This document shows positions 5,998 through 17,878 of a DNA stretch of 18,870 nucleotides, in pieces (position 1 is the stretch's first letter; each line of letters opens with the position of its first letter). Below the pieces are notes generated by a model, which ran no database searches, was not told the DNA's origin, and was given only the letters and a program-made list of their open reading frames with translations. Location: IMG/VR virus record IMGVR_UViG_2740892232_000009, one strand, 5' to 3'. The DNA comes from a virus (lineage: Duplodnaviria > Heunggongvirae > Uroviricota > Caudoviricetes). The position numbers were made by a program, and so were the translations under genes.

Positions 5998-6098
5998 TGT
6001 TTTTTAACCTCAACTCAGATTAAAATTCGTTTTGTTCAGTGAATGATCTTGCCGGATACACACTGTTCATAGCCTGCGCCATACGCAGGCTATTTCTT

Positions 6099-6374
6099 TC
6101 AGATTTCACCTTTTAATTTCATTGCAATTAGAGTTGCCAGAAATTCGGCTTTTTTTTCTGCGGGCAGATTCTTTCCGATATGCACCAGGCACATTTTTTT
6201 GACACCTTCATCAAGTGTTTTTACGTTGCCTGATGGACCATCGATATCAACCACAGTGAATGGGGTTTCTTTATTTTCTGTTTTAATTACGTAGCCAATG
6301 CGCTTTCCTTCCAGATTCACCTCGTGAACAATGTCATCGGTAGTTACAACAGTGGCTTCATAATTGGTAATCAT
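6099..6374 (-). CDS. racC: RacC (91 aa), function unknown
   Basis: Translation MITNYEATVVTTDDIVHEVNLEGKRIGYVIKTENKETPF... ATG at 6374 preceded by AAGGAG. Confidence 0.85.
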   Translation of the reverse strand: MITNYEATVVTTDDIVHEVNLEGKRIGYVIKTENKETPFTVVDIDGPSGNVKTLDEGVKKMCLVHIGKNLPAEKKAEFLATLIAMKLKGEI

Positions 6375-6448
6375 GTTTTTCTCCTTAATTAAGGTTGAGC
6401 GAATACCTGCCATTTCTGGCATAAATTCAGTTTCGAATAGTCAATTAA

Positions 6449-6619
6449 TTAAAGTTCATGTGCCATCTGGTCTTTTTCGGCACAAGCTTCACTGCAATAT
6501 TTTCTCGGTTCGTCTTTTGATAAAATCCCGTGCATGAAGTGAAGCATTCTTTCAATAGCTTTGCTTTCTTCAACGTCTTTTTTGCAAAGGTGGTAAGCAC
6601 ATTTTATTTTCTTAGTCAT
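6449..6619 (-). CDS. ydaE: Small Cys-rich protein (56 aa), absent from the ORF track because it is under 60 aa
   Basis: Hand translation of the minus strand gives [56 protein letters not shown]. Start ATG 6617-6619 overlaps the kilR stop (6619-6621) by one base (ATGA). Stop TAA at 6449-6451. Confidence 0.75.
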   Translation of the reverse strand: MTKKIKCAYHLCKKDVEESKAIERMLHFMHGILSKDEPRKYCSEACAEKDQMAHEL

Positions 6620-6840
6620 CACCATGACTCCGCCTTTACAGGTAAACCATCACGACCGAGGAAGACTTTAATCATGCGGTCAGTAATGCATGTTTTTGTG
6701 GTCAGGTTACGAATATATAGTTTTCGCTTTTTAATATTGTTTGCCGAGGCAATATATGTCCGGCCTTCATGAAGAACATAATCGCCAGGAGTCACACACT
6801 GACGTGGTATTTCATCAGTTCCGAAGTGATGTGCAATCAT
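6619..6840 (-). CDS. kilR: KilR cell-division inhibitor (73 aa)
   Basis: Translation [46 protein letters not shown]... ATG at 6840 with GGAG 6 nt upstream; an in-frame ATG at 6852 is an alternative. Confidence 0.85.
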
Positions 6841-7281
6841 AATTATCTCCATTTTTACAAATGAACTTTGTTGATGCGGTGCCTGGTGCCTCCAGGTGAC
6901 TGCAACCAGTTAACAATTACAGTCGGCTTTCCCACCCAAACCAATAAGGACTAACATGACTTTTAACTGTGCCACGTGCGCTTAGCCGCATTCACCGCAT
7001 CACAAAATTCACTTTAAAAAGGGCGGACATCAGCCGAACTTCAAGAAAAAAACTGATGCCGCCAGGACTACACACAGTAATGTCGTTATTTACAACCGGA
7101 GGCGCACTCCCACCATTTAAATTTAACAGACAAGACCGACTCTTTATGGATATCGGAAATGCGCCTTCGTGTTGTGCCCGGTTTTATTTCACCACCTCCG
7201 GGCTTCGGTGGTCTCGGCTATACCCCTACAGCGAGAGCTTGTGTTAACATTTCAATACCCTTACAGTTGAGAGTTATTGAT

Positions 7282-7770
7282 ATGTTGGATGTATTTACTC
7301 CATTGTTGAAACTTTTTGCTAACGAGCCACTCGAAAGACTTATGTATACGATTATCATTTTTGGTCTCACTCTCTGGCTGATACCGAAAGAGTTTACTGT
7401 CGCATTCAATGCTTATACTGAAATACCTTGGCTCTTTCAGATTATCGTTTTTGCCTTTTCTTTCGTGGTCGCCATTTCCTTCTCAAGATTGCGAGCACAT
7501 ATTCAAAAGCATTATTCATTACTACCAGAGCAACGAGTATTGCTTCGTTTATCTGAGAAAGAAATCGCTGTATTTAAAGATTTCCTTAAAACAGGAAATC
7601 TTATTATCACTTCTCCTTGCCGTAACCCGGTTATGAAAAAATTAGAACGGAAGGGCATCATTCAACATCAGAGTGATAGCGCAAACTGTTCTTATTATCT
7701 CGTCACCGAAAAATACTCCCATTTTATGAAGTTATTCTGGAACAGCAGGAGTAGACGTTTTAATCGTTAG
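7282..7770 (+). CDS. sieB: Superinfection exclusion protein B (162 aa), membrane protein
   Basis: Translation from MLDVFTPLLKLFANEPLERLMYTIIIFGLTLWLIPKEF..., with hydrophobic N-terminal segments. ATG at 7282; the longer ORF-track start at 7159 is an unsupported upstream extension. Confidence 0.85.
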   Translation: MLDVFTPLLKLFANEPLERLMYTIIIFGLTLWLIPKEFTVAFNAYTEIPWLFQIIVFAFSFVVAISFSRLRAHIQKHYSLLPEQRVLLRLSEKEIAVFKDFLKTGNLIITSPCRNPVMKKLERKGIIQHQSDSANCSYYLVTEKYSHFMKLFWNSRSRRFNR

Positions 7771-8067: not shown

Positions 8068-8234
8068 CTTATCTCTCCCCTTAACGCCGGGTGGCGGAAC
8101 TAACTGCTGCACTGCAAAATTTGAATCCCGCCGTCATGTTCATACGCCTCGGGCTGGCTACTTAACCCCTGACCACTGCCTGGTAACTCGAAGTATTGCC
8201 CTGCGTTCTGTGGGGCGGGGTGGGTTGGTAGGTA

Positions 8235-8276
8235 TATAATGTACTTTGTGTTCATTGTTGTAAAGTACTTTAAGTA
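8235..8276 (-). promoter_or_regulatory. Leftward pL-like promoter candidate with two operator-like palindromes (O1 8240-8252 GTACTTTGTGTTC; O2 8264-8276 GTACTTTAAGTAC)
   Basis: On the minus strand: -35 TTTACA (plus 8258-8263), 17-bp spacer, -10 CATTAT (plus 8235-8240). O2 is a perfect 6+1+6 palindrome; O1 lies in the spacer. The two sites start 24 bp apart. Confidence 0.5.
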
Positions 8277-8354
8277 CATTCTGTGTGTAAAAAAATGAGA
8301 TGGGATAAAGTGAAGCACAAACCCGGAGGGGGACGCTACCGGATTTATGCTGGT

Positions 8355-8774
8355 TTAAGAGGCTTTTTGTTTTTTCTTTCGTGCTAACTCTTCGTAAATT
8401 GCATTGTACTTCTGTTTTTTCTCCTCAAGAGTTTTTAAAAGTTCATCTGTCTCACTGTCAGGGAGCTCGTCCAGAAGGTCAATGATGATTTTTTGTCTTG
8501 GATTTAACTCCTGATAGAAACGTACCTGTCCACTTTCTTCTGTATCCTCTCCCAAAAGATAGGTTGGTGTTGTTCCAATGAGTGTTGCTAATTCCCTTAA
8601 TTTCTCTCGGCGAGGAATTGTTTCGCCATTAAACCATTTGCTAACCGCTTTTGGTGTTAATTTCATTCGACGGGCAATTTCTGCCTGCCTTCCATGTTGT
8701 TCATAACCAGCGTTTTCACAGGCTAGCGCAAGCCTACTGGCGAACTCTTTACGCGCTTTATCTTCATGAACCAT
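8355..8774 (-). CDS. racR: Prophage repressor, XRE/Cro-CI-type helix-turn-helix, no peptidase domain (139 aa)
   Basis: HTH-like segment QAEIARRMKLTPKAVSKWFNGETIPRREKLRELATLIG. Occupies the cI position, divergent from ydaS. ATG at 8774. Confidence 0.75.
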   Translation of the reverse strand: MVHEDKARKEFASRLALACENAGYEQHGRQAEIARRMKLTPKAVSKWFNGETIPRREKLRELATLIGTTPTYLLGEDTEESGQVRFYQELNPRQKIIIDLLDELPDSETDELLKTLEEKKQKYNAIYEELARKKKQKAS

Positions 8775-8853
8775 AAGTTCAATGATATTCGCTCTTGAAT
8801 GTACTGTCAGTTCTGTTATAGCATGTACTCAAAGTTCACATTGTGAGGGTGAT
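8775..8853. promoter_or_regulatory. Divergent racR / ydaS control region with two operator-like sites (O3 8801-8813 GTACTGTCAGTTC; O4 8825-8837 GTACTCAAAGTTC)
   Basis: Same half-site pattern (GTACT-N3-AGTWC) and same 24-bp spacing as O1/O2. Leftward promoter candidate: -35 CTGACA (plus 8805-8810), 17 bp, -10 TATCAT (plus 8782-8787), which would start transcription at or beside the racR ATG. Confidence 0.5.
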
Positions 8854-9108
8854 ATGAACCAGAAAACACTTGAAGATGTAATCAAAACTGTTCGCGTTTC
8901 TGTTGTGGCCGACGTTTGTGGTGTCAGCCAAAGAGCAATCTACAAATGGATGGATAACGGAAAATTGCCTCGCACAGAATATACCGGCGAAACAAATTAC
9001 GCTGAAAAAATCGCTCATGCATCAAACGGATTATTTTCTGCCGATGCAATTTTAACTATTGGCAAAAATAAAACTACTACGAAAAAGCTGATGGGAGTTG
9101 ATTCATGA
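8854..9108 (+). CDS. ydaS: Cro-like HTH protein in the cro position (84 aa from the ATG at 8854)
   Basis: ATG at 8854 preceded by GAGGGTG. HTH-like segment VADVCGVSQRAIYKWMDNGKLP. The longer start at 8782 would leave no room for a promoter beside racR. Stop overlaps the ydaT start (ATGA at 9105-9108). Confidence 0.7.
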   Translation: MNQKTLEDVIKTVRVSVVADVCGVSQRAIYKWMDNGKLPRTEYTGETNYAEKIAHASNGLFSADAILTIGKNKTTTKKLMGVDS

Positions 9109-9527
9109 AAATCAAGCATGAGCACATCGAATCAGTGTTGTTAGCCCTGGCTGCTGAAAAAGGGCAGGCATGGGTAGCCAATGCCATTACTGAAGAATAT
9201 CTGCGCCAGGGGGGCGGCGAATTGCCCCTGGTACCAGGCAAGGACTGGAACAATCAGCAGAATATCTATCACCGTTGGTTGAAAGGTGAAACGAAAGCGC
9301 AAAGGGAAAAAATTCAGAAACTGATCCCTGCGGTTCTGGCAATCCTTCCGCGCGAGCTGCGTCACCGACTCTGCATCTTCGATACCCTGGAACGCCGTGC
9401 ATTACTGGCGGCGCAGGAAGCGTTAAGTACGGCAATTGATGCGCATGATGATGCAGTCCAGGCCGTTTACCGGAAAGCGCATTTCAGCGGCGGCGGGTCT
9501 TCCGACGATTCTGTCATTGTTCATTAA
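9105..9527 (+). CDS. ydaT: YdaT (140 aa), co-transcribed with ydaS
   Basis: Translation MKIKHEHIESVLLALAAEKGQAWVANAITEEYLRQGGGELPLVPGKDW... Start overlaps the ydaS stop. Confidence 0.85.
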   Translation: MKIKHEHIESVLLALAAEKGQAWVANAITEEYLRQGGGELPLVPGKDWNNQQNIYHRWLKGETKAQREKIQKLIPAVLAILPRELRHRLCIFDTLERRALLAAQEALSTAIDAHDDAVQAVYRKAHFSGGGSSDDSVIVH

Positions 9528-9539
9528 GCAAAAGTTTCC

Positions 9540-10397
9540 ATGCTGTTTGTGCTTATTCTAAGCAACCGGGCAGCATCATACGGGGCAATTATGGCCGCAT
9601 TACCATACATGCAACTGTACATAGCTGATTACCTGGCTGACACCATGCATTTGTCAGCAGAGGAGCATGGTGCGTATTTGTTGCTGATGTTCAATTACTG
9701 GCAAACAGGAAAGCCAATACCTAAAAACAGGCTGGCAAAAATTGCCCGTCTGACTAACGAGCGATGGGCTGATGTTGAACCATCCTTGCAGGAGTTTTTT
9801 TGCGATAACGGCGAGGAATGGGTGCATCTTCGGATTGAGGAAGATCTGGCATCAGTCAGGGAAAAATTAACCAAAAAATCAGCCGCAGGAAAAGCATCTG
9901 TTCAGGCCAGAAGAAGCAGAAAGGAAGCAGATGTTCAAACAAAACAAGAGAGAAATTTAACAGGTGTTCAAACAGATGTTGAAGTGGTGTTTGAACATGA
10001 TGTCAACACAAAGGCAACTAATAAAGATACAGATAAAGATCTAAAAAAAGATCCCCCCCTAAATCCCCCCCGGGGGAATCGAGGTGTCAAAAAGTTTGAC
10101 CCTCTGGATATTGCTTTGCCGAACTGGATTTCTGTCTCGCTTTGGCGTGAGTGGGTTGAATTTCGCCAGGCATTGCGTAAACCGATTCGAACGGAGCAGG
10201 GCGCTAACGGGGCGATACGGGAGCTGGAAAAATTCCGCCAGCAGGGTTTTTCACCTGAGCAGGTGATTCGACACAGCATCGCCAATGAATACCAGGGCTT
10301 GTTCGCGCCAAAAGGTGTTCGACCTGAGACGTTACTCCGACAGGTTAACACCGTCTCGTTACCGGATAGTGCGATCCCGCCAGGCTTCAGGGGGTAA
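9540..10397 (+). CDS. ydaU: YdaU-like replication-module protein (285 aa), function not established
   Basis: Long ORF directly upstream of the DnaC-like gene. Alternative start ATG at 9591 has a slightly better upstream G-run. Acidic/basic low-complexity middle (KDTDKDLKKDPPLNPPRGNRG). Confidence 0.7.
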   Translation: MLFVLILSNRAASYGAIMAALPYMQLYIADYLADTMHLSAEEHGAYLLLMFNYWQTGKPIPKNRLAKIARLTNERWADVEPSLQEFFCDNGEEWVHLRIEEDLASVREKLTKKSAAGKASVQARRSRKEADVQTKQERNLTGVQTDVEVVFEHDVNTKATNKDTDKDLKKDPPLNPPRGNRGVKKFDPLDIALPNWISVSLWREWVEFRQALRKPIRTEQGANGAIRELEKFRQQGFSPEQVIRHSIANEYQGLFAPKGVRPETLLRQVNTVSLPDSAIPPGFRG

Positions 10398-12380: not shown

Positions 12381-14639
12381 ATGAAACCAGAATACTTAAG
12401 AAAAATAGAATCATTGCAACGTGAGGTTGATGATTTCCATCCAGTGCTAAGAGCGCTTCTACCACGTTTGCCGACTGTTACACATGTTGAATATAAGCAA
12501 GGACCATCAGAAAAAGGTGCTGATTTTGTCATAATTAAACGAGATGAGGCATTAGACGAGGAAATATATATTGGTGTTATTTGTAAAGTTGGAAAGATAA
12601 TTCAGTCAAATAGTGAGGTTGAACGACAAATAGAAGAGTGTCAATTATATCCACGCTTTATTTCTTCTGGCTCTAAGAACATACATTTGAATGAAATTTG
12701 GGTTATTACTAATTCATCGATCTCAAATAATGCTCAAGAAAAAATTTACTTGAAATTCAAATCTACAAATATAAAATTTATAGAGGGTGAAAAAATATGT
12801 TCTTTAATCAGTAAATATTACCCAGAGTTTTGGGATTTCGAATCCATTAATTATGAACAATACTTAACAGATACATTGCAAACCATAAGTGATACACCTG
12901 AAAGCTCTTTTTTTGGTAGTGTTGGCATAAATAACCTTATTGATAGATATGTAAGCAAGGAAGATCATAAAAAACGCAGACACAGGCCGTTAAAACTGTA
13001 TAGTGTTGTGAGAGCCGAGAGATTTATTTTTTTAGAGGGAACCGTTGGCTCTGGGAAAAGTACTTTGCTGAAACAGTTAATTAGAAAAATAAAAGAAGAA
13101 TATTCTTACGAAAAAGACTACATCCTTCCAGTATTTTGTCAATACAAGGATGTTCTAGAAAAAAAACTTAATGTTGAAAATATAATACAAAGTGTGTTAA
13201 GTAAGTACAAAATACAACATGATGGGAATATTTTATTAATTGTTGATTCGGTGGATGAAGTAAAGGAATCACTTGAGGAAAGGCAAAACAACTTCAGGGA
13301 CATTGTAGAGAAAGTATCCAGGAATGATAAAATTCGATTACTAGTTGCTTCAAGAATTATGGATTCTCTTCAGGACTATGAAGTTATCGATCAGATGTTT
13401 GCAAGATACTCGATAATACCACTTAGCACAGGTCAAATAATCGACTTTGTAGATAAAATCTGCAATGACATTAAAATAACAAATAAACTTAAAAATGGTA
13501 TAGAAAAAACACCACTATTTAAGTTCATTCCCAGGACTCCAGTGAGCGCTATTCTTCTGGCAAGAATACTCTCTGATGAGATTAAAGAATTACCATCTAC
13601 AATGACAGAACTATACTCAAAATACAGTGAGATAGTATTGGGACGATGGGATACATCTAAGGGATTATTATCGCAAACAGAATATGATGTAATAAGTAAT
13701 ATATTAGTAGAAATTGCGATATTTATGATGGATAACTCTCTAAACTGCATATCAATTTCAGAAGTGCAGGACATGTTTTTAAATTATTTGGCCAAAAGAA
13801 ACTTGAATGTTGATGAGGACAAACTTTTCAAAAGACTAATTTATCGCAGTGAAGTAACAACAGTTAATGTTAGAAGTAATACGTTCTCATTTCTACACAG
13901 ATCATTCATGGAGTATTTTTACGCTGAAGGACTTAGGAAGCGTGGCCTAATAGACATAAATGATAATATTTATGATATTTATTGGGCAAATAGTTATTTC
14001 TTCTATTTTGGTTTGTTAAGAGACAATGAATATCTTATTGATAAAATTAATGAACTTAAACCTAGTAACGATAAAACAAGATTTTTAAGGTTATTTTATA
14101 ACGGTTCTTTTTATTTGGCTTCATATCTAACTCCGTATAAAAAAATAACGAGGGGAGTCCTTTTATCATATATAGATGCAGGTAAATTATATGTTGATAT
14201 TCTCAAGGGAAATACCGACATCCCGCTGAAGGAGTTTTCACCAGTAGCTCTTCTTTGTATTTTCACAAAGTGTTTAAGTAACAATTACGCATATGATTTT
14301 TTCAAATCTGCCTTGGAAGACTTGTCAGTTCAAATTGAACAATATGAGGAAATTGGTGAACATATTGATTATGCACGTTTCTTCATAGCATCAACACTGA
14401 ATGAGCTCGGGGATAAATCCGCATTTGATAGCTTAGTGGAAAAAAATAAATTAGGTGTTTTGATTAATTTAGGGATAACTCACGTTACAGACGACTCAGG
14501 GCTACTTAGCACTACGGTTGATAAGTACCTGAAAAAATTCAATAAAAAAGTACGAAGTAACCATGATATGTCTAATTATATATCTAAGTTATATGAGGAA
14601 TCTACAGGTTCCTTACGTACAAACCTGCAAATTCAATAA
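12381..14639 (+). CDS. STAND / NACHT-type P-loop NTPase (752 aa) with N-terminal restriction-endonuclease-like (Mrr-like) region; candidate antiphage defence protein
   Basis: Walker A LEGTVGSGKST (residues 218-228, nt 13032-13064). Walker B with the NACHT acidic pair LLIVDSVDE (286-294). Sensor-1-like LLVASR (320-325). N-terminal GPSEKGADFVII ... EIYIGVICK resembles the Mrr catalytic motifs. Gene is visibly AT-rich relative to its flanks. Confidence 0.7.
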   Translation: MKPEYLRKIESLQREVDDFHPVLRALLPRLPTVTHVEYKQGPSEKGADFVIIKRDEALDEEIYIGVICKVGKIIQSNSEVERQIEECQLYPRFISSGSKNIHLNEIWVITNSSISNNAQEKIYLKFKSTNIKFIEGEKICSLISKYYPEFWDFESINYEQYLTDTLQTISDTPESSFFGSVGINNLIDRYVSKEDHKKRRHRPLKLYSVVRAERFIFLEGTVGSGKSTLLKQLIRKIKEEYSYEKDYILPVFCQYKDVLEKKLNVENIIQSVLSKYKIQHDGNILLIVDSVDEVKESLEERQNNFRDIVEKVSRNDKIRLLVASRIMDSLQDYEVIDQMFARYSIIPLSTGQIIDFVDKICNDIKITNKLKNGIEKTPLFKFIPRTPVSAILLARILSDEIKELPSTMTELYSKYSEIVLGRWDTSKGLLSQTEYDVISNILVEIAIFMMDNSLNCISISEVQDMFLNYLAKRNLNVDEDKLFKRLIYRSEVTTVNVRSNTFSFLHRSFMEYFYAEGLRKRGLIDINDNIYDIYWANSYFFYFGLLRDNEYLIDKINELKPSNDKTRFLRLFYNGSFYLASYLTPYKKITRGVLLSYIDAGKLYVDILKGNTDIPLKEFSPVALLCIFTKCLSNNYAYDFFKSALEDLSVQIEQYEEIGEHIDYARFFIASTLNELGDKSAFDSLVEKNKLGVLINLGITHVTDDSGLLSTTVDKYLKKFNKKVRSNHDMSNYISKLYEESTGSLRTNLQIQ

Positions 14640-15097: not shown

Positions 15098-15308
15098 TTT
15101 TATATTGGCGAGGTGACGGGAGTTAAGTAGAATTGCTGCGGGTGCTTGAGGCTATCTGCCTCGGGCATGAACACCAAAGGCAGATAGAGAAAAGCCCCAG
15201 TTAACATTACGCGTCCGGCAAGACGCTTAACATTAATCTGAGGCCAATTTCATGCTTTGCACATGTAGGTTAGCCTCTTACGTGCCGAAAGGCAAGGAGA
15301 AGCAGGCT

Positions 15309-15464
15309 ATGAAGCAGCAAAAGGCGATGTTAATCGCCCTGATCGTCATCTGTTTAACCGTCATTGTGACGGCACTGGTAACGAGGAAAGACCTCTGCGA
15401 GGTACGAATCCGAACCGGGCAGACGGAGGTCGCTGTCTTCACAGCTTACGAACCTGAGGAGTAA
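15309..15464 (+). CDS. hokD: Hok-family type I toxin (51 aa)
   Basis: Translation MKQQKAMLIALIVICLTVIVTALVTRKDLCEVRIRTGQTEVAVFTAYEPEE. AGGAG at 15295-15299 upstream of ATG 15309. An in-frame upstream ATG at 15252 gives the 70-aa ORF-track version. Confidence 0.85.
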   Translation: MKQQKAMLIALIVICLTVIVTALVTRKDLCEVRIRTGQTEVAVFTAYEPEE

Positions 15465-17724: not shown

Positions 17725-17800
<76 letters not shown>

Positions 17801-17803
17801 TAT

Positions 17804-17878
<75 letters not shown>

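Follow-up and report, generated by a model that had tools for sequence, protein, structure and literature searches.

A predicted HK022-type immunity switch in the racR-ydaS position of a Rac-type lambdoid prophage

The three genes at positions 8355-9527 of the window (the whole 18,870-nucleotide stretch of viral DNA analysed here) raise the question of whether they form a toxic operon guarded by its repressor, as in the original prediction of racR, ydaS and ydaT, or a switch of another kind. Judged from sequence comparison, the locus is, with a probability of about 0.85, the immunity (lysis-lysogeny) switch of a Rac-type lambdoid prophage beside ttcA, in which an HK022-type cassette replaces the racR-ydaS allele. 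The switch is of the lambdoid CI/Cro/CII type, a kind already known, and does not overturn the current understanding of lambdoid switches; the allele itself is uncharacterised. The genes are as follows:

8355..8774, minus strand: prophage repressor, 139 aa, with an HK022-type XRE DNA-binding domain (aa 1-80) and a DicA-like helical tail (aa 81-139)
8854..9108, plus strand: Cro-like regulator, 84 aa, homologous to HK022 Cro rather than to YdaS
9105..9527, plus strand: ydaT, 140 aa, a CII-analogue transcription factor orthologous to K-12 YdaT

The layout that had been proposed, a repressor divergent from a two-gene operon, was borne out. All three open reading frames were intact, the repressor and Cro-like genes diverged from a 79-bp intergenic region, and the stop and start of the Cro-like gene and ydaT overlapped at 9105-9108 in the ATGA that had been noted. 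The Cro-like gene had a ribosome binding site (GAGGG) 5 nt 5' of its start, and a terminator scan found none between the genes. Over 8200-9700 the window matched E. coli M8 at 100%, and the annotated order in that strain is ttcA-intR-xisR-...-kilR-sieB-ydaF-(repressor)-(HTH)-ydaT-ydaU-ydaV. The M8 prophage is full-size, with complete lysis, head and tail modules. The PGAP annotation does not name the repressor racR in strain M8 and uses that name in K-12-type strains.

Comparison with the K-12 proteins upheld one of the three gene names. K-12 RacR aligned with the window repressor at 36% over 33 aa only (E 1e-4); the 12 identical residues among these 33 were all inside the HTH and the remainder was unaligned. 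K-12 YdaS aligned with the Cro-like protein over 18 aa (BLASTP, 6/18 identical residues, 33%, E 0.027), and the family PF15943 (YdaS_toxin; gathering threshold 30 bits), on which K-12 YdaS scores 107.7 bits, gave no match to the Cro-like protein at E<=0.01. The third protein shared 137 of its 140 residues (98%) with K-12 YdaT and scored 44.4 bits on PF06254 against a cut-off of 21. It matched phrog_163 ("CII-like transcriptional activator") and the PDB entries 3c4r and 8bt1, and kept H56-R57-W58 of K-12 YdaT (IYHRW conserved), of which H56 and R57 matter for DNA binding and W58 for the fold (PMC11879457). Low identity to the K-12 proteins, which the original prediction had named as grounds for its own rejection, was found for two of the three genes, with ydaT orthologous. 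In addition, a cognate binding site was present at the start of ydaT:

9098..9115: YdaT-box, a perfect inverted repeat, TTGATT-CATGAA-AATCAA, whose spacer contains the ATG of ydaT and the TGA of the Cro-like gene

This was the sole perfect match in the window to TTGATT-N6-AATCAA, the published YdaT binding consensus; the box footprinted at the same place in K-12 is ATGATTCATGAAAATCAA (PMC11879457), with A as its first base where the window box has T. A box-like site was also noted at 2114-2131, 5' of xisR. The K-12 ydaS and ydaT genes are separated by 22 nt, whereas the window pair overlaps.

Pairwise alignment with K-12 Rac gave near-identical flanks and an unalignable interior. The left break was at about 8225, directly after GGGGCGGGGTGGGT, and the right break at 9098/9099, at the first base of the YdaT-box, which marks the right junction of the exchanged segment:

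8226..9098: exchanged immunity cassette, 873 bp, with the left operators and pL, the repressor gene, the right operators and pR/pRM, and the Cro-like gene

Outside these limits, ydaT and the remainder are K-12-like on alignment. The K-12 Rac and window loci have the same chromosomal site, flanking genes, ydaT and CI/Cro/CII-like logic, and K-12 Rac likewise has left and right operator regions inside an exchangeable cassette. However, the K-12 Rac repressor, Cro-like gene and operators are unrelated to those of the window, and K-12 uses GCCTAAT-type repeats.

The window cassette was identified in 1047 of 5426 complete E. coli genomes, in which it was 98-100% conserved, and the K-12-type cassette in 1085 of the same 5426. 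The same 873 bp were present in four phage records at 97.9-99% identity; the deposited phage vB_EcoS-666R9 is a 38.7-kb Rac-type genome carrying the cassette. Since at least two unrelated cassettes occupy one slot at similar frequency, results on RacR essentiality and cross-talk and on YdaS toxicity are not automatically transferable to strains with the window allele, and the presence of racR and ydaS cannot be assumed when Rac-type prophages are annotated. The cassette represents a clean natural module exchange whose joints are defined, the left one being where the leftward early transcript starts and the right one the YdaT-box.

The closest known system was the HK022 immunity region (cI - oR/pR - cro, oL/pL; GenBank X16093). 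HK022, HK75 and O276 had approximately 70% nucleotide identity across window positions 8614-9024. The Cro-like protein was 63% identical to HK022 Cro over 73 aa (E 4e-35) and matched phrog_35; a PDB sequence search with it returned nothing meaningful. The repressor was 47% identical to HK022 CI over 99 aa (BLAST, E 6e-32), and the identities of its residues 1-80 were 53% to HK022 CI, 68% to Omnitron CI and 69% to Klebsiella phage 2 CI. Its recognition helix (TPKAVSKWFNGE in the window repressor, TPKAISKWFNGE in HK022) was invariant across 12 short and long homologues. A homologous Cro and a homologous repressor DNA-binding domain were found together with operators alike in sequence type and layout. 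After cro, HK022 has a lambda-type cII, whereas the Cro-like gene of the window abuts ydaT through the YdaT-box.

The predicted operators and promoters are listed below, with the operators described by the 17-bp pattern ATGTAC-N5-GTWCAT:

8239..8255: predicted left operator a, ATGTACTTTGTGTTCAT, with 0 mismatches to the pattern, overlapping the -10 of the pL-like promoter
8263..8279: predicted left operator b, AAGTACTTTAAGTACAT, at a spacing of 24 bp from site a and overlapping the -35 of the pL-like promoter
8766..8782: predicted right operator 3, ATGAACCATAAGTTCAA, spanning the repressor start codon and transcription start
8799..8815: predicted right operator 2, ATGTACTGTCAGTTCTG, between the pR -35 and -10 (HK022 counterpart TGTACTATCAGTTCC)
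8823..8839: predicted right operator 1, ATGTACTCAAAGTTCAC, directly 3' of the pR -10 (HK022 counterpart TGAACCATAAGTTCA)
8236..8264, minus strand: predicted pL-like promoter, -35 TTTACA (8264..8259), 17 nt, -10 CATTAT (8241..8236)
8782..8810, minus strand: predicted pRM-like promoter, -35 CTGACA (8810..8805), 17 nt, -10 TATCAT (8787..8782)
8795..8822, plus strand: predicted pR-like promoter, -35 TTGAAT (8795-8800), 16 nt, -10 TATAGC (8817-8822), with TG at 8814-8815

An operator pair had been claimed for this locus. Repeated operator-like sites were indeed present, but they numbered five, with two of them outside 8355-9527. The pattern was derived from the window sequence itself and its statistics are therefore partly circular: matches with <=2 mismatches in the 18.9-kb window amounted to 9 strand hits against 2.5 expected, a count reached by 2 of 200 shuffles, and all fell inside the two regulatory regions. 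Five of the six core sites with <=1 mismatch were within 223 nt of non-coding cassette DNA. The 7-mer ATGTACT alone was not enriched across the window (4 against 1.8 expected, with 4 reached by 22 of 200 shuffles). The informative operator signal is the 17-bp palindromic pattern and its clustering only, and the independent support comes from the positional match to the annotated sites of HK022. Left operator a sits where HK022 has an "oL pot. repressor binding site", TGTACTTAAAGTTCA; the HK022 counterpart of left operator b is AGTACCAATAGTACA, at an equal 24-bp spacing; and the 15-bp core of right operator 3, TGAACCATAAGTTCA, recurs unchanged in HK022 as the annotated oR site at the start of cI. 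The operators of the two regions share TG(A/T)AC half-sites, and both regions have two left and three right operators, 24-bp and 33-bp spacings, and pL and pR hexamers at the same positions. Across four diverged cassettes the operator half-sites were kept, with varying spacers. Equivalents of the extra HK022 operators (a third left site and a site 3' of cro; PMC8053113) were sought in the window, and no convincing site was seen.

A promoter scan gave 9/12 consensus matches for the pL-like promoter, which would serve the leftward early operon ydaG, ydaF ... kilR, recET; the HK022 pL is equivalent in position, with -35 TTTACA and -10 CATCAT. The pR-like promoter was missed by the consensus scan because its -10 is without the canonical final T. 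It aligned column by column with the annotated HK022 pR (TTGACT ... CATAAT), which suggests that it functions as a promoter. The pRM-like promoter had 10/12 consensus matches, and a TATnnT hexamer was present in the same column as its -10 in HK022, Omnitron and Klebsiella phage 2. Based on the distance of 7 nt from this -10 to the repressor ATG, the repressor mRNA is predicted to be leaderless, by analogy with lambda cI and paaR2 (PMC8630535). The predicted pRM -35 is inside right operator 2, a geometry unlike that of lambda.

Beyond its DNA-binding domain the repressor differed from its HK022 relatives. The CI proteins of HK022, Omnitron and Klebsiella phage 2 have 235-236 aa, compared with 139 aa in the window. 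HK022 CI (235 aa) has a self-cleavage and oligomerisation domain, scoring 69.5 bits on Peptidase_S24 (PF00717), whereas a Pfam search with the window repressor identified HTH_3 (37.9 bits) with Peptidase_S24 absent, the protein ending 59 residues past the DNA-binding domain. The repressor is not of the LexA/CI self-cleaving type (HTH plus Peptidase_S24). In the database search both architectures, short and long, were found with the shared DNA-binding domain.

The sequence relative of the short tail was DicA of the K-12 Qin prophage (b1570), to which the repressor was 29% identical over 112 aa, tail included (E 5e-15). On the NCBIfam DicA model (NF007257) it scored 56.8 bits against a cut-off of 101, with positions 20-132 of 135 aligned. 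DicA (135 aa) and the window repressor (139 aa) both consist of an XRE HTH, a linker and a helical tail, have a matching tail motif (LSPKE/LNPRQ ... LPESE/LPDSE) and match phrog_5736. In contrast, the DNA-binding domain of DicA is only about 23% identical to that of the window repressor, whose partner is HK022-Cro-like and not DicC-like; DicC, considered as the partner of a DicA-like repressor, gave no alignment with the Cro-like protein. An AlphaFold2 model of the repressor had the HTH domain, the linker and three helices, with only helices after the linker. Foldseek of this model against the PDB gave generic XRE-HTH matches only, none significant for the tail, and a PDB sequence search found the P22 C2 N-terminal domain only. 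The weak structural neighbours of the model include the antirepressor-inactivated short repressors 5d4z and 9iaq. A defence-system role was unsupported by PADLOC, which gave weak HTH matches (RmrA, CapH) for the repressor and none for YdaT.

Based on these comparisons, we speculate that the repressor is a natural domain-swap, in which HK022-type operator recognition is joined to a DicA-type helical tail that replaces the RecA-sensitive S24 domain. With cross-repression with HK022-type phages and the YdaT-box as a recombination joint included, the proposal is tentative, and we give it somewhat less than an even chance. If this speculation is correct, DNA-binding specificity would have been kept in repressor evolution while the induction/oligomerisation domain was exchanged, HK022-type phages and Rac-type/Tritos-type prophages would cross-repress, and the YdaT-box would be a conserved recombination joint for immunity cassettes of unrelated specificity before diverged YdaT alleles. 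Were HK022 operator specificity kept, approximately one-fifth of E. coli genomes, those with the cassette, would harbour a prophage whose immunity against HK022-immunity phages is insensitive to SOS.

The repressor of phage Tritos was identical to that of the window. In Tritos, a temperate phage that forms virions and plaques, the cassette with this repressor serves as the immunity region, and the Tritos repressor was expressed 24-fold over the prophage background in the lysogen (PMC9928086). The YdaT-box is kept in Tritos, where it is 5' of a YdaT only 33% identical.

These findings bear on the interpretation of the three genes as racR, ydaS and ydaT orthologues that form a TA-like, addictive module, with a repressor guarding two toxins. 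The gene order and orientation are those of K-12 and YdaT is nearly identical, K-12 racR is undeletable and derepressed ydaS/ydaT are toxic (PMC5700373, PMC5700377), YdaT over-expression causes filamentation through rcsA (PMC11879457), and the CP-933P immunity region has been described as addictive (PMC8630535). However, the repressor is not RacR and the Cro-like protein is not YdaS, which refutes orthology for two of the three genes; both belong to an HK022-related cassette, and a viable phage has the identical module as its immunity region. Control would be transcriptional, from a divergent promoter, and not by protein-protein neutralisation in one operon: the co-transcription of a type II TA pair is not seen here, the repressor being divergent from the Cro-like gene and ydaT. 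Even in K-12 the TA/addiction interpretation is disputed, with the literature arguing for YdaS as a Cro analogue and YdaT as a CII analogue (PMC5917428, PMC8630535, PMC11879457). The TA interpretation is not supported for the window locus, which it suits even less than K-12, and we consider a module of RacR-guarded toxins extremely improbable. Loss of the repressor is likely still harmful, as an ordinary consequence of prophage derepression; silencing of LF82 prophage repressors was detrimental (bioRxiv 10.64898/2026.01.05.697630).

The same data argue against a fossil switch in a cryptic prophage, decayed to the point where its regulatory activity has gone. K-12 Rac is cryptic, the DUF977 gene adjoining the switch is a pseudogene in strain M8, and the pR -10 is non-canonical, all of which would be consistent with decay. 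We nevertheless regard it as very improbable, based on the intact state of all three genes in a cassette conserved in more than 1000 genomes, the expression of the identical repressor in the lysogen of plaque-forming Tritos, the retention of operator half-sites across 70%-identical relatives while spacers varied, the complete lysis, head and tail modules of the M8 prophage, and the deposition of vB_EcoS-666R9 as a phage.

For a functional HK022-type immunity switch, which we prefer, induction should not depend on RecA-mediated cleavage, as the repressor has no counterpart of the S24 domain by which HK022 CI cleaves itself. In other phages, antirepressors inactivate short HTH repressors that end in a helical tail. 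The switch might still be SOS-inducible if a LexA-controlled antirepressor from outside the window inactivated the short repressor, as in Gifsy-type systems, and the nature of the weak structural neighbours 5d4z and 9iaq would fit such a route. Two observations led us to consider it unlikely: no LexA box was found anywhere across the 18.9-kb early region in the window, and in one study of a polylysogen (PMC9928086) Tritos, whose repressor is identical, was absent from the prophages for which induction by ciprofloxacin or trimethoprim was reported. The missing ciprofloxacin induction of Tritos in that single polylysogen study is no proof of SOS independence.

Taking the locus as an HK022-type switch, we propose the following scheme, which for operator occupancy, promoter activity, Cro binding, the position of the leftward promoter activated by YdaT and the induction route is a prediction from the sequence. 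The 139-aa repressor, which probably dimerises by its C-terminal helices, would bind the 17-bp pseudo-palindromes at the three right and two left operators via its HK022-type helix-turn-helix. It would shut pR, and with it the Cro-like gene, ydaT and then the replication genes ydaU and ydaV, as well as pL, and with it ydaG, ydaF ... kilR, recET, and, at the operator over its start codon, would limit its own transcription into a probably leaderless mRNA. If repression failed, the Cro-like protein would be produced from pR and would be expected to act on the same operators, locking the lytic state. YdaT would be translated off the pR mRNA via the ATGA overlap and would bind the YdaT-box at its own start codon; as shown for K-12, it would then drive leftward transcription that replenishes the repressor, as a CII-like lysogeny-establishment arm. 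The YdaT-activated leftward promoter in K-12 maps inside ydaS, and within the Cro-like gene a leftward YdaT-dependent promoter was sought by eye with none assignable. Under this scheme, control would be independent of SOS, and there may be cross-immunity with HK022-type phages.

A similar arrangement has been described in CP-933P of O157:H7 (paaR2/ydaS/ydaT), in which the CI analogue is short, non-S24 and leaderless and is encoded divergently from the Cro analogue and from YdaT, the CII analogue, the YdaT-box consensus is the same TTGATT-N6-AATCAA as in the window, and the system is bistable (PMC8630535, PMC9986795). CP-933P has a paaA2-parE2 toxin-antitoxin pair behind the repressor (PMC8630535), whereas no TA genes follow the window repressor. 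CP-933P also uses GTTTAGTAA-type repeats, and its YdaT shares only about 30% identity with the Rac type (PMC11879457, PMC8630535).

The region that the original prediction had read as an intact racR-ydaS-ydaT module was real and had the anatomy drawn for it, with three intact open reading frames and an ATGA overlap between the Cro-like gene and ydaT at 9105-9108.

Open reading frames of the region
8355..8774, minus strand: HTH repressor gene, intact, 139 aa
8854..9108, plus strand: Cro-like gene, intact, 84 aa, start codon ATG at 8854, closely preceded by a GAGGG ribosome-binding site
9105..9527: ydaT, intact, 140 aa

Alignment to the K-12 proteins supported only one of the three gene names. 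The window YdaT was identical to that of K-12 at 137 of 140 residues. K-12 RacR matched the window repressor over 33 HTH residues only (36%, E 1e-4), and K-12 YdaS matched 18 residues of the Cro-like protein (E 0.027), which had no match to PF15943 in a Pfam search; K-12 YdaS scores 107.7 bits against this family. Identity was therefore low for two of the three genes, and the RacR and YdaS assignments were rejected.

DNA alignment with the K-12 Rac prophage was near-perfect to ~8225, then failed, and identity returned at 9099 (TGATTCATGAAAATC...). These breaks indicated that an 873-bp cassette (8226-9098) stands in place of the 1063-bp K-12 racR-ydaS cassette. Blastn against phage genomes identified the whole cassette at 98-99% identity in four records (vB_EcoS-666R9, vB_EcoS-673R7, vB_EcoS-613R10 and Tritos, a plaque-forming phage of strain LF82), where its genes are annotated as "CI repressor" and "Cro". 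Positions 8614-9024 were ~70% identical to the cI-oR-cro region of the phages HK022, HK75 and O276, and similar matches were found in several Klebsiella and Citrobacter phages. The repressor, cro, the two operator regions and the two early promoters all lie in the cassette, which thus has the content expected of a classical immunity region in a lambdoid phage. The feature belongs to a known class of lambdoid immunity switches; as far as our literature search went, the allele has had no earlier characterization.

Repeat finding identified ATGTACT-containing repeats flanking the repressor gene on both sides, and a scan for ATGTAC-N5-GTWCAT (up to two mismatches) gave matches at no more than five positions across all 18.9 kb of the window. 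The operator-like sites of the original prediction were therefore borne out, but not their number, which had been given as a pair.

Predicted regulatory sites of the cassette
8239-8255 and 8263-8279: predicted left operators, left of the repressor gene, ATGTAC-N5-GTWCAT
8766-8782, 8799-8815 and 8823-8839: predicted right operators, right of the repressor gene, ATGTAC-N5-GTWCAT
8264..8236, minus strand: pL-like promoter, TTTACA-17-CATTAT, from consensus scan
8810..8782, minus strand: predicted repressor promoter, CTGACA-17-TATCAT, from consensus scan
pR-like promoter, TTGAAT-16-TATAGC with an upstream TG, from alignment with the annotated pR of HK022

The pattern had nine strand matches versus an expected 2.5, a number that 2 of 200 shuffles also attained, and five of six window matches to its 15-bp core, with one mismatch allowed, fell within the 223 nt of non-coding cassette DNA (~0.02 expected); these statistics overstate the significance because the pattern was derived from the window sequence itself. 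The GenBank record of HK022, with repressor sites annotated twice at oL and three times at oR, provides independent evidence for the predicted operators. The HK022 and window sites have in common TG(A/T)AC half-sites, 24-bp and 33-bp spacings and their positions relative to the genes, and the core over the repressor start codon, TGAACCATAAGTTCA, is identical in both. Across four cassettes that are ~70% identical, the operator half-sites were conserved and the 5-bp spacers varied.

The pL-like promoter coincided with the annotated pL of HK022, and the pR-like promoter had been missed by the consensus scan because its -10 lacks the final T. The TATnnT hexamer of the repressor promoter was conserved at one alignment position across the four relatives, and as this promoter ends 7 nt before the repressor ATG, a leaderless mRNA is predicted. 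Its predicted -35 lies inside right operator 2 (region 8782-8815), and the predicted transcription start falls at the center of operator 3. As lambda is arranged differently, positive autoregulation of the lambda type may not apply.

The Cro-like protein was 63% identical to HK022 Cro (E 4e-35). The first 80 residues of the repressor were 53% identical to HK022 CI and 68-69% identical to the CI proteins of Omnitron (Citrobacter) and Klebsiella phage 2 LV-2017, and the recognition helix, TPKAVSKWFNGE, was invariant in 12 homologues, with HK022 having I in place of V. These three CI proteins are 235-236 aa long and that of HK022 has a Peptidase_S24 domain (69.5 bits), whereas Pfam identified no such domain in the window repressor, which ends 59 residues past its DNA-binding domain. 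The window repressor was 29% identical to DicA, the short repressor encoded by the Qin prophage, over 112 residues that included the tail (E 5e-15). The repressor also matched phrog_5736, and scored 56.8 bits with the NCBIfam DicA model, under the cut-off of 101. An AlphaFold2 model (mean pLDDT 82.5) had a five-helix HTH domain, a low-confidence linker (residues 78-83) and then three helices, the last of 33 residues; a Foldseek search with it returned generic XRE-family matches only. In a large protein database, the same DNA-binding domain occurred in both a short architecture (E. coli, Salmonella) and a long S24 architecture (Klebsiella, Raoultella and others). Based on its HK022-like DNA-binding domain, lack of S24 and DicA-like tail, the repressor is a natural chimera.

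The right joint of the cassette coincides with a YdaT binding site. In K-12, such a site, ATGATTCATGAAAATCAA, was shown by footprinting to cover the start codon of ydaT, and bound YdaT activates a leftward promoter inside ydaS, raising racR expression up to 29-fold; the CP-933P consensus is TTGATT-N6-AATCAA (PMC11879457). The window matches this consensus perfectly just once, with TTGATTCATGAAAATCAA at 9098-9115, the first base of which is the cassette boundary. The ATG of ydaT and the TGA of cro both fall in the spacer of this box, and the ATGA overlap therefore belongs to it. Tritos has the same cassette and box followed by a YdaT only 33% identical, which suggests that exchangeable modules meet at a conserved joint formed by the box and the first few ydaT codons. 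The left joint, also common to Tritos, lies in conserved sequence where the leftward transcript begins. We consider mildly new the chimeric repressor, with its HK022-type specificity domain and DicA-type tail, the predicted operator specificity common to HK022 and the cassette, and the YdaT-box as a putative module joint.

Scanning for the YdaT-box at up to two mismatches, for which ~2.4 chance matches are expected in the window, also gave a one-mismatch site, TTGATTATTAATAATCAG, at 2114-2131, ~39 bp before the start codon of xisR. The site could mark a promoter for xis/int that is activated by YdaT in a CII/pI-like manner. The site is present in K-12 Rac and phage 666R9, but this conservation is uninformative because the surrounding DNA is ~99% conserved.

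The original prediction had likened the module to a toxin-antitoxin pair. For K-12, two 2017 papers showed that the essentiality of racR stems from the toxicity of derepressed ydaS/ydaT (PMC5700373, PMC5700377). Later publications, namely Jobling's letter (PMC5917428), the CP-933P work (PMC8630535) and the 2025 YdaT study (PMC11879457), argue that RacR, YdaS and YdaT make up a prophage switch as the analogues of CI, Cro and CII and do not form a toxin-antitoxin system, toxicity arising in this view from ectopic or derepressed expression, e.g., YdaT activating rcsA. Indirect experimental support for the cassette as a switch comes from Tritos, whose repressor has an amino-acid sequence identical to that of the window. 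Tritos forms virions and plaques, and in the LF82 lysogen transcription of its repressor gene exceeds the prophage background 24-fold; the prophages reported as ciprofloxacin-induced did not include Tritos, and trimethoprim slightly lowered its yield (PMC9928086). Silencing of the LF82 prophage repressors by CRISPRi was reported to be detrimental (bioRxiv 10.64898/2026.01.05.697630). As the window has no LexA box and the repressor no S24 domain, we favor SOS-independent control of the switch, although an antirepressor encoded elsewhere in the prophage, outside the window, may still act on it.

A search of 5426 complete E. coli genomes detected the cassette in 1047, nearly all at ≥95% identity, and the K-12 racR-ydaS cassette in 1085. 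These counts fit the earlier observation that racR and ydaS occur, always together, in only about one-third of strains (PMC5700373). In ~618 genomes the cassette was joined to K-12-type ydaT/ydaU as in the window. In Tritos (6001-7305) it lies within a Qin/DicB-type left arm (dicB, dicF, ydfD), and the YdaT that follows resembles PDB 3c4r; this arm and the 33%-identical YdaT indicate that the cassette moves between backbones. The K-12 cassette (query L002:9616-10678, from K-12 Rac) fell into two identity classes, with 585 genomes at ≥95% and 504 at 80-90%, which suggests a third, diverged RacR-type immunity allele.

The 1.5 kb of the window around the switch was 100% identical to E. coli M8 and many other strains. 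The annotated order in M8 is ttcA-intR-xisR-rcbA-ralR-recT-recE-racC-ydaE-kilR-sieB-ydaF, two unnamed HTH genes and ydaT-ydaU-ydaV; the prophage is of the Rac type, at the Rac attachment site. The M8 prophage goes on to a lysis cassette and terminase, portal, capsid and tail genes, and it is full-size, in contrast to the 23-kb K-12 remnant. The deposited 38.7-kb genome of phage vB_EcoS-666R9 has the same left arm and immunity genes as the window.

The prophage carries two bona fide type I toxin-antitoxin loci, namely the RalA antitoxin sRNA opposite ralR (2167-2345, Rfam 220 bits) and a sok-type antisense RNA adjoining hokD (15140-15314, Rfam 116 bits). A 752-aa ORF (12381-14639, plus strand), flanked by the replication genes and hokD in the place that ydaW/rzpR/trkG occupy in K-12 Rac, is annotated in M8 as a NACHT domain protein and may be a prophage-borne defense gene; PADLOC gave only weak P-loop matches to it. 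Downstream of the DUF1133 (Q-like) gene are two adjacent prophage-borne tRNA genes, tRNA-Thr(TGT) at 17725-17800 and tRNA-Gly(TCC) at 17804-17878, both on the plus strand.
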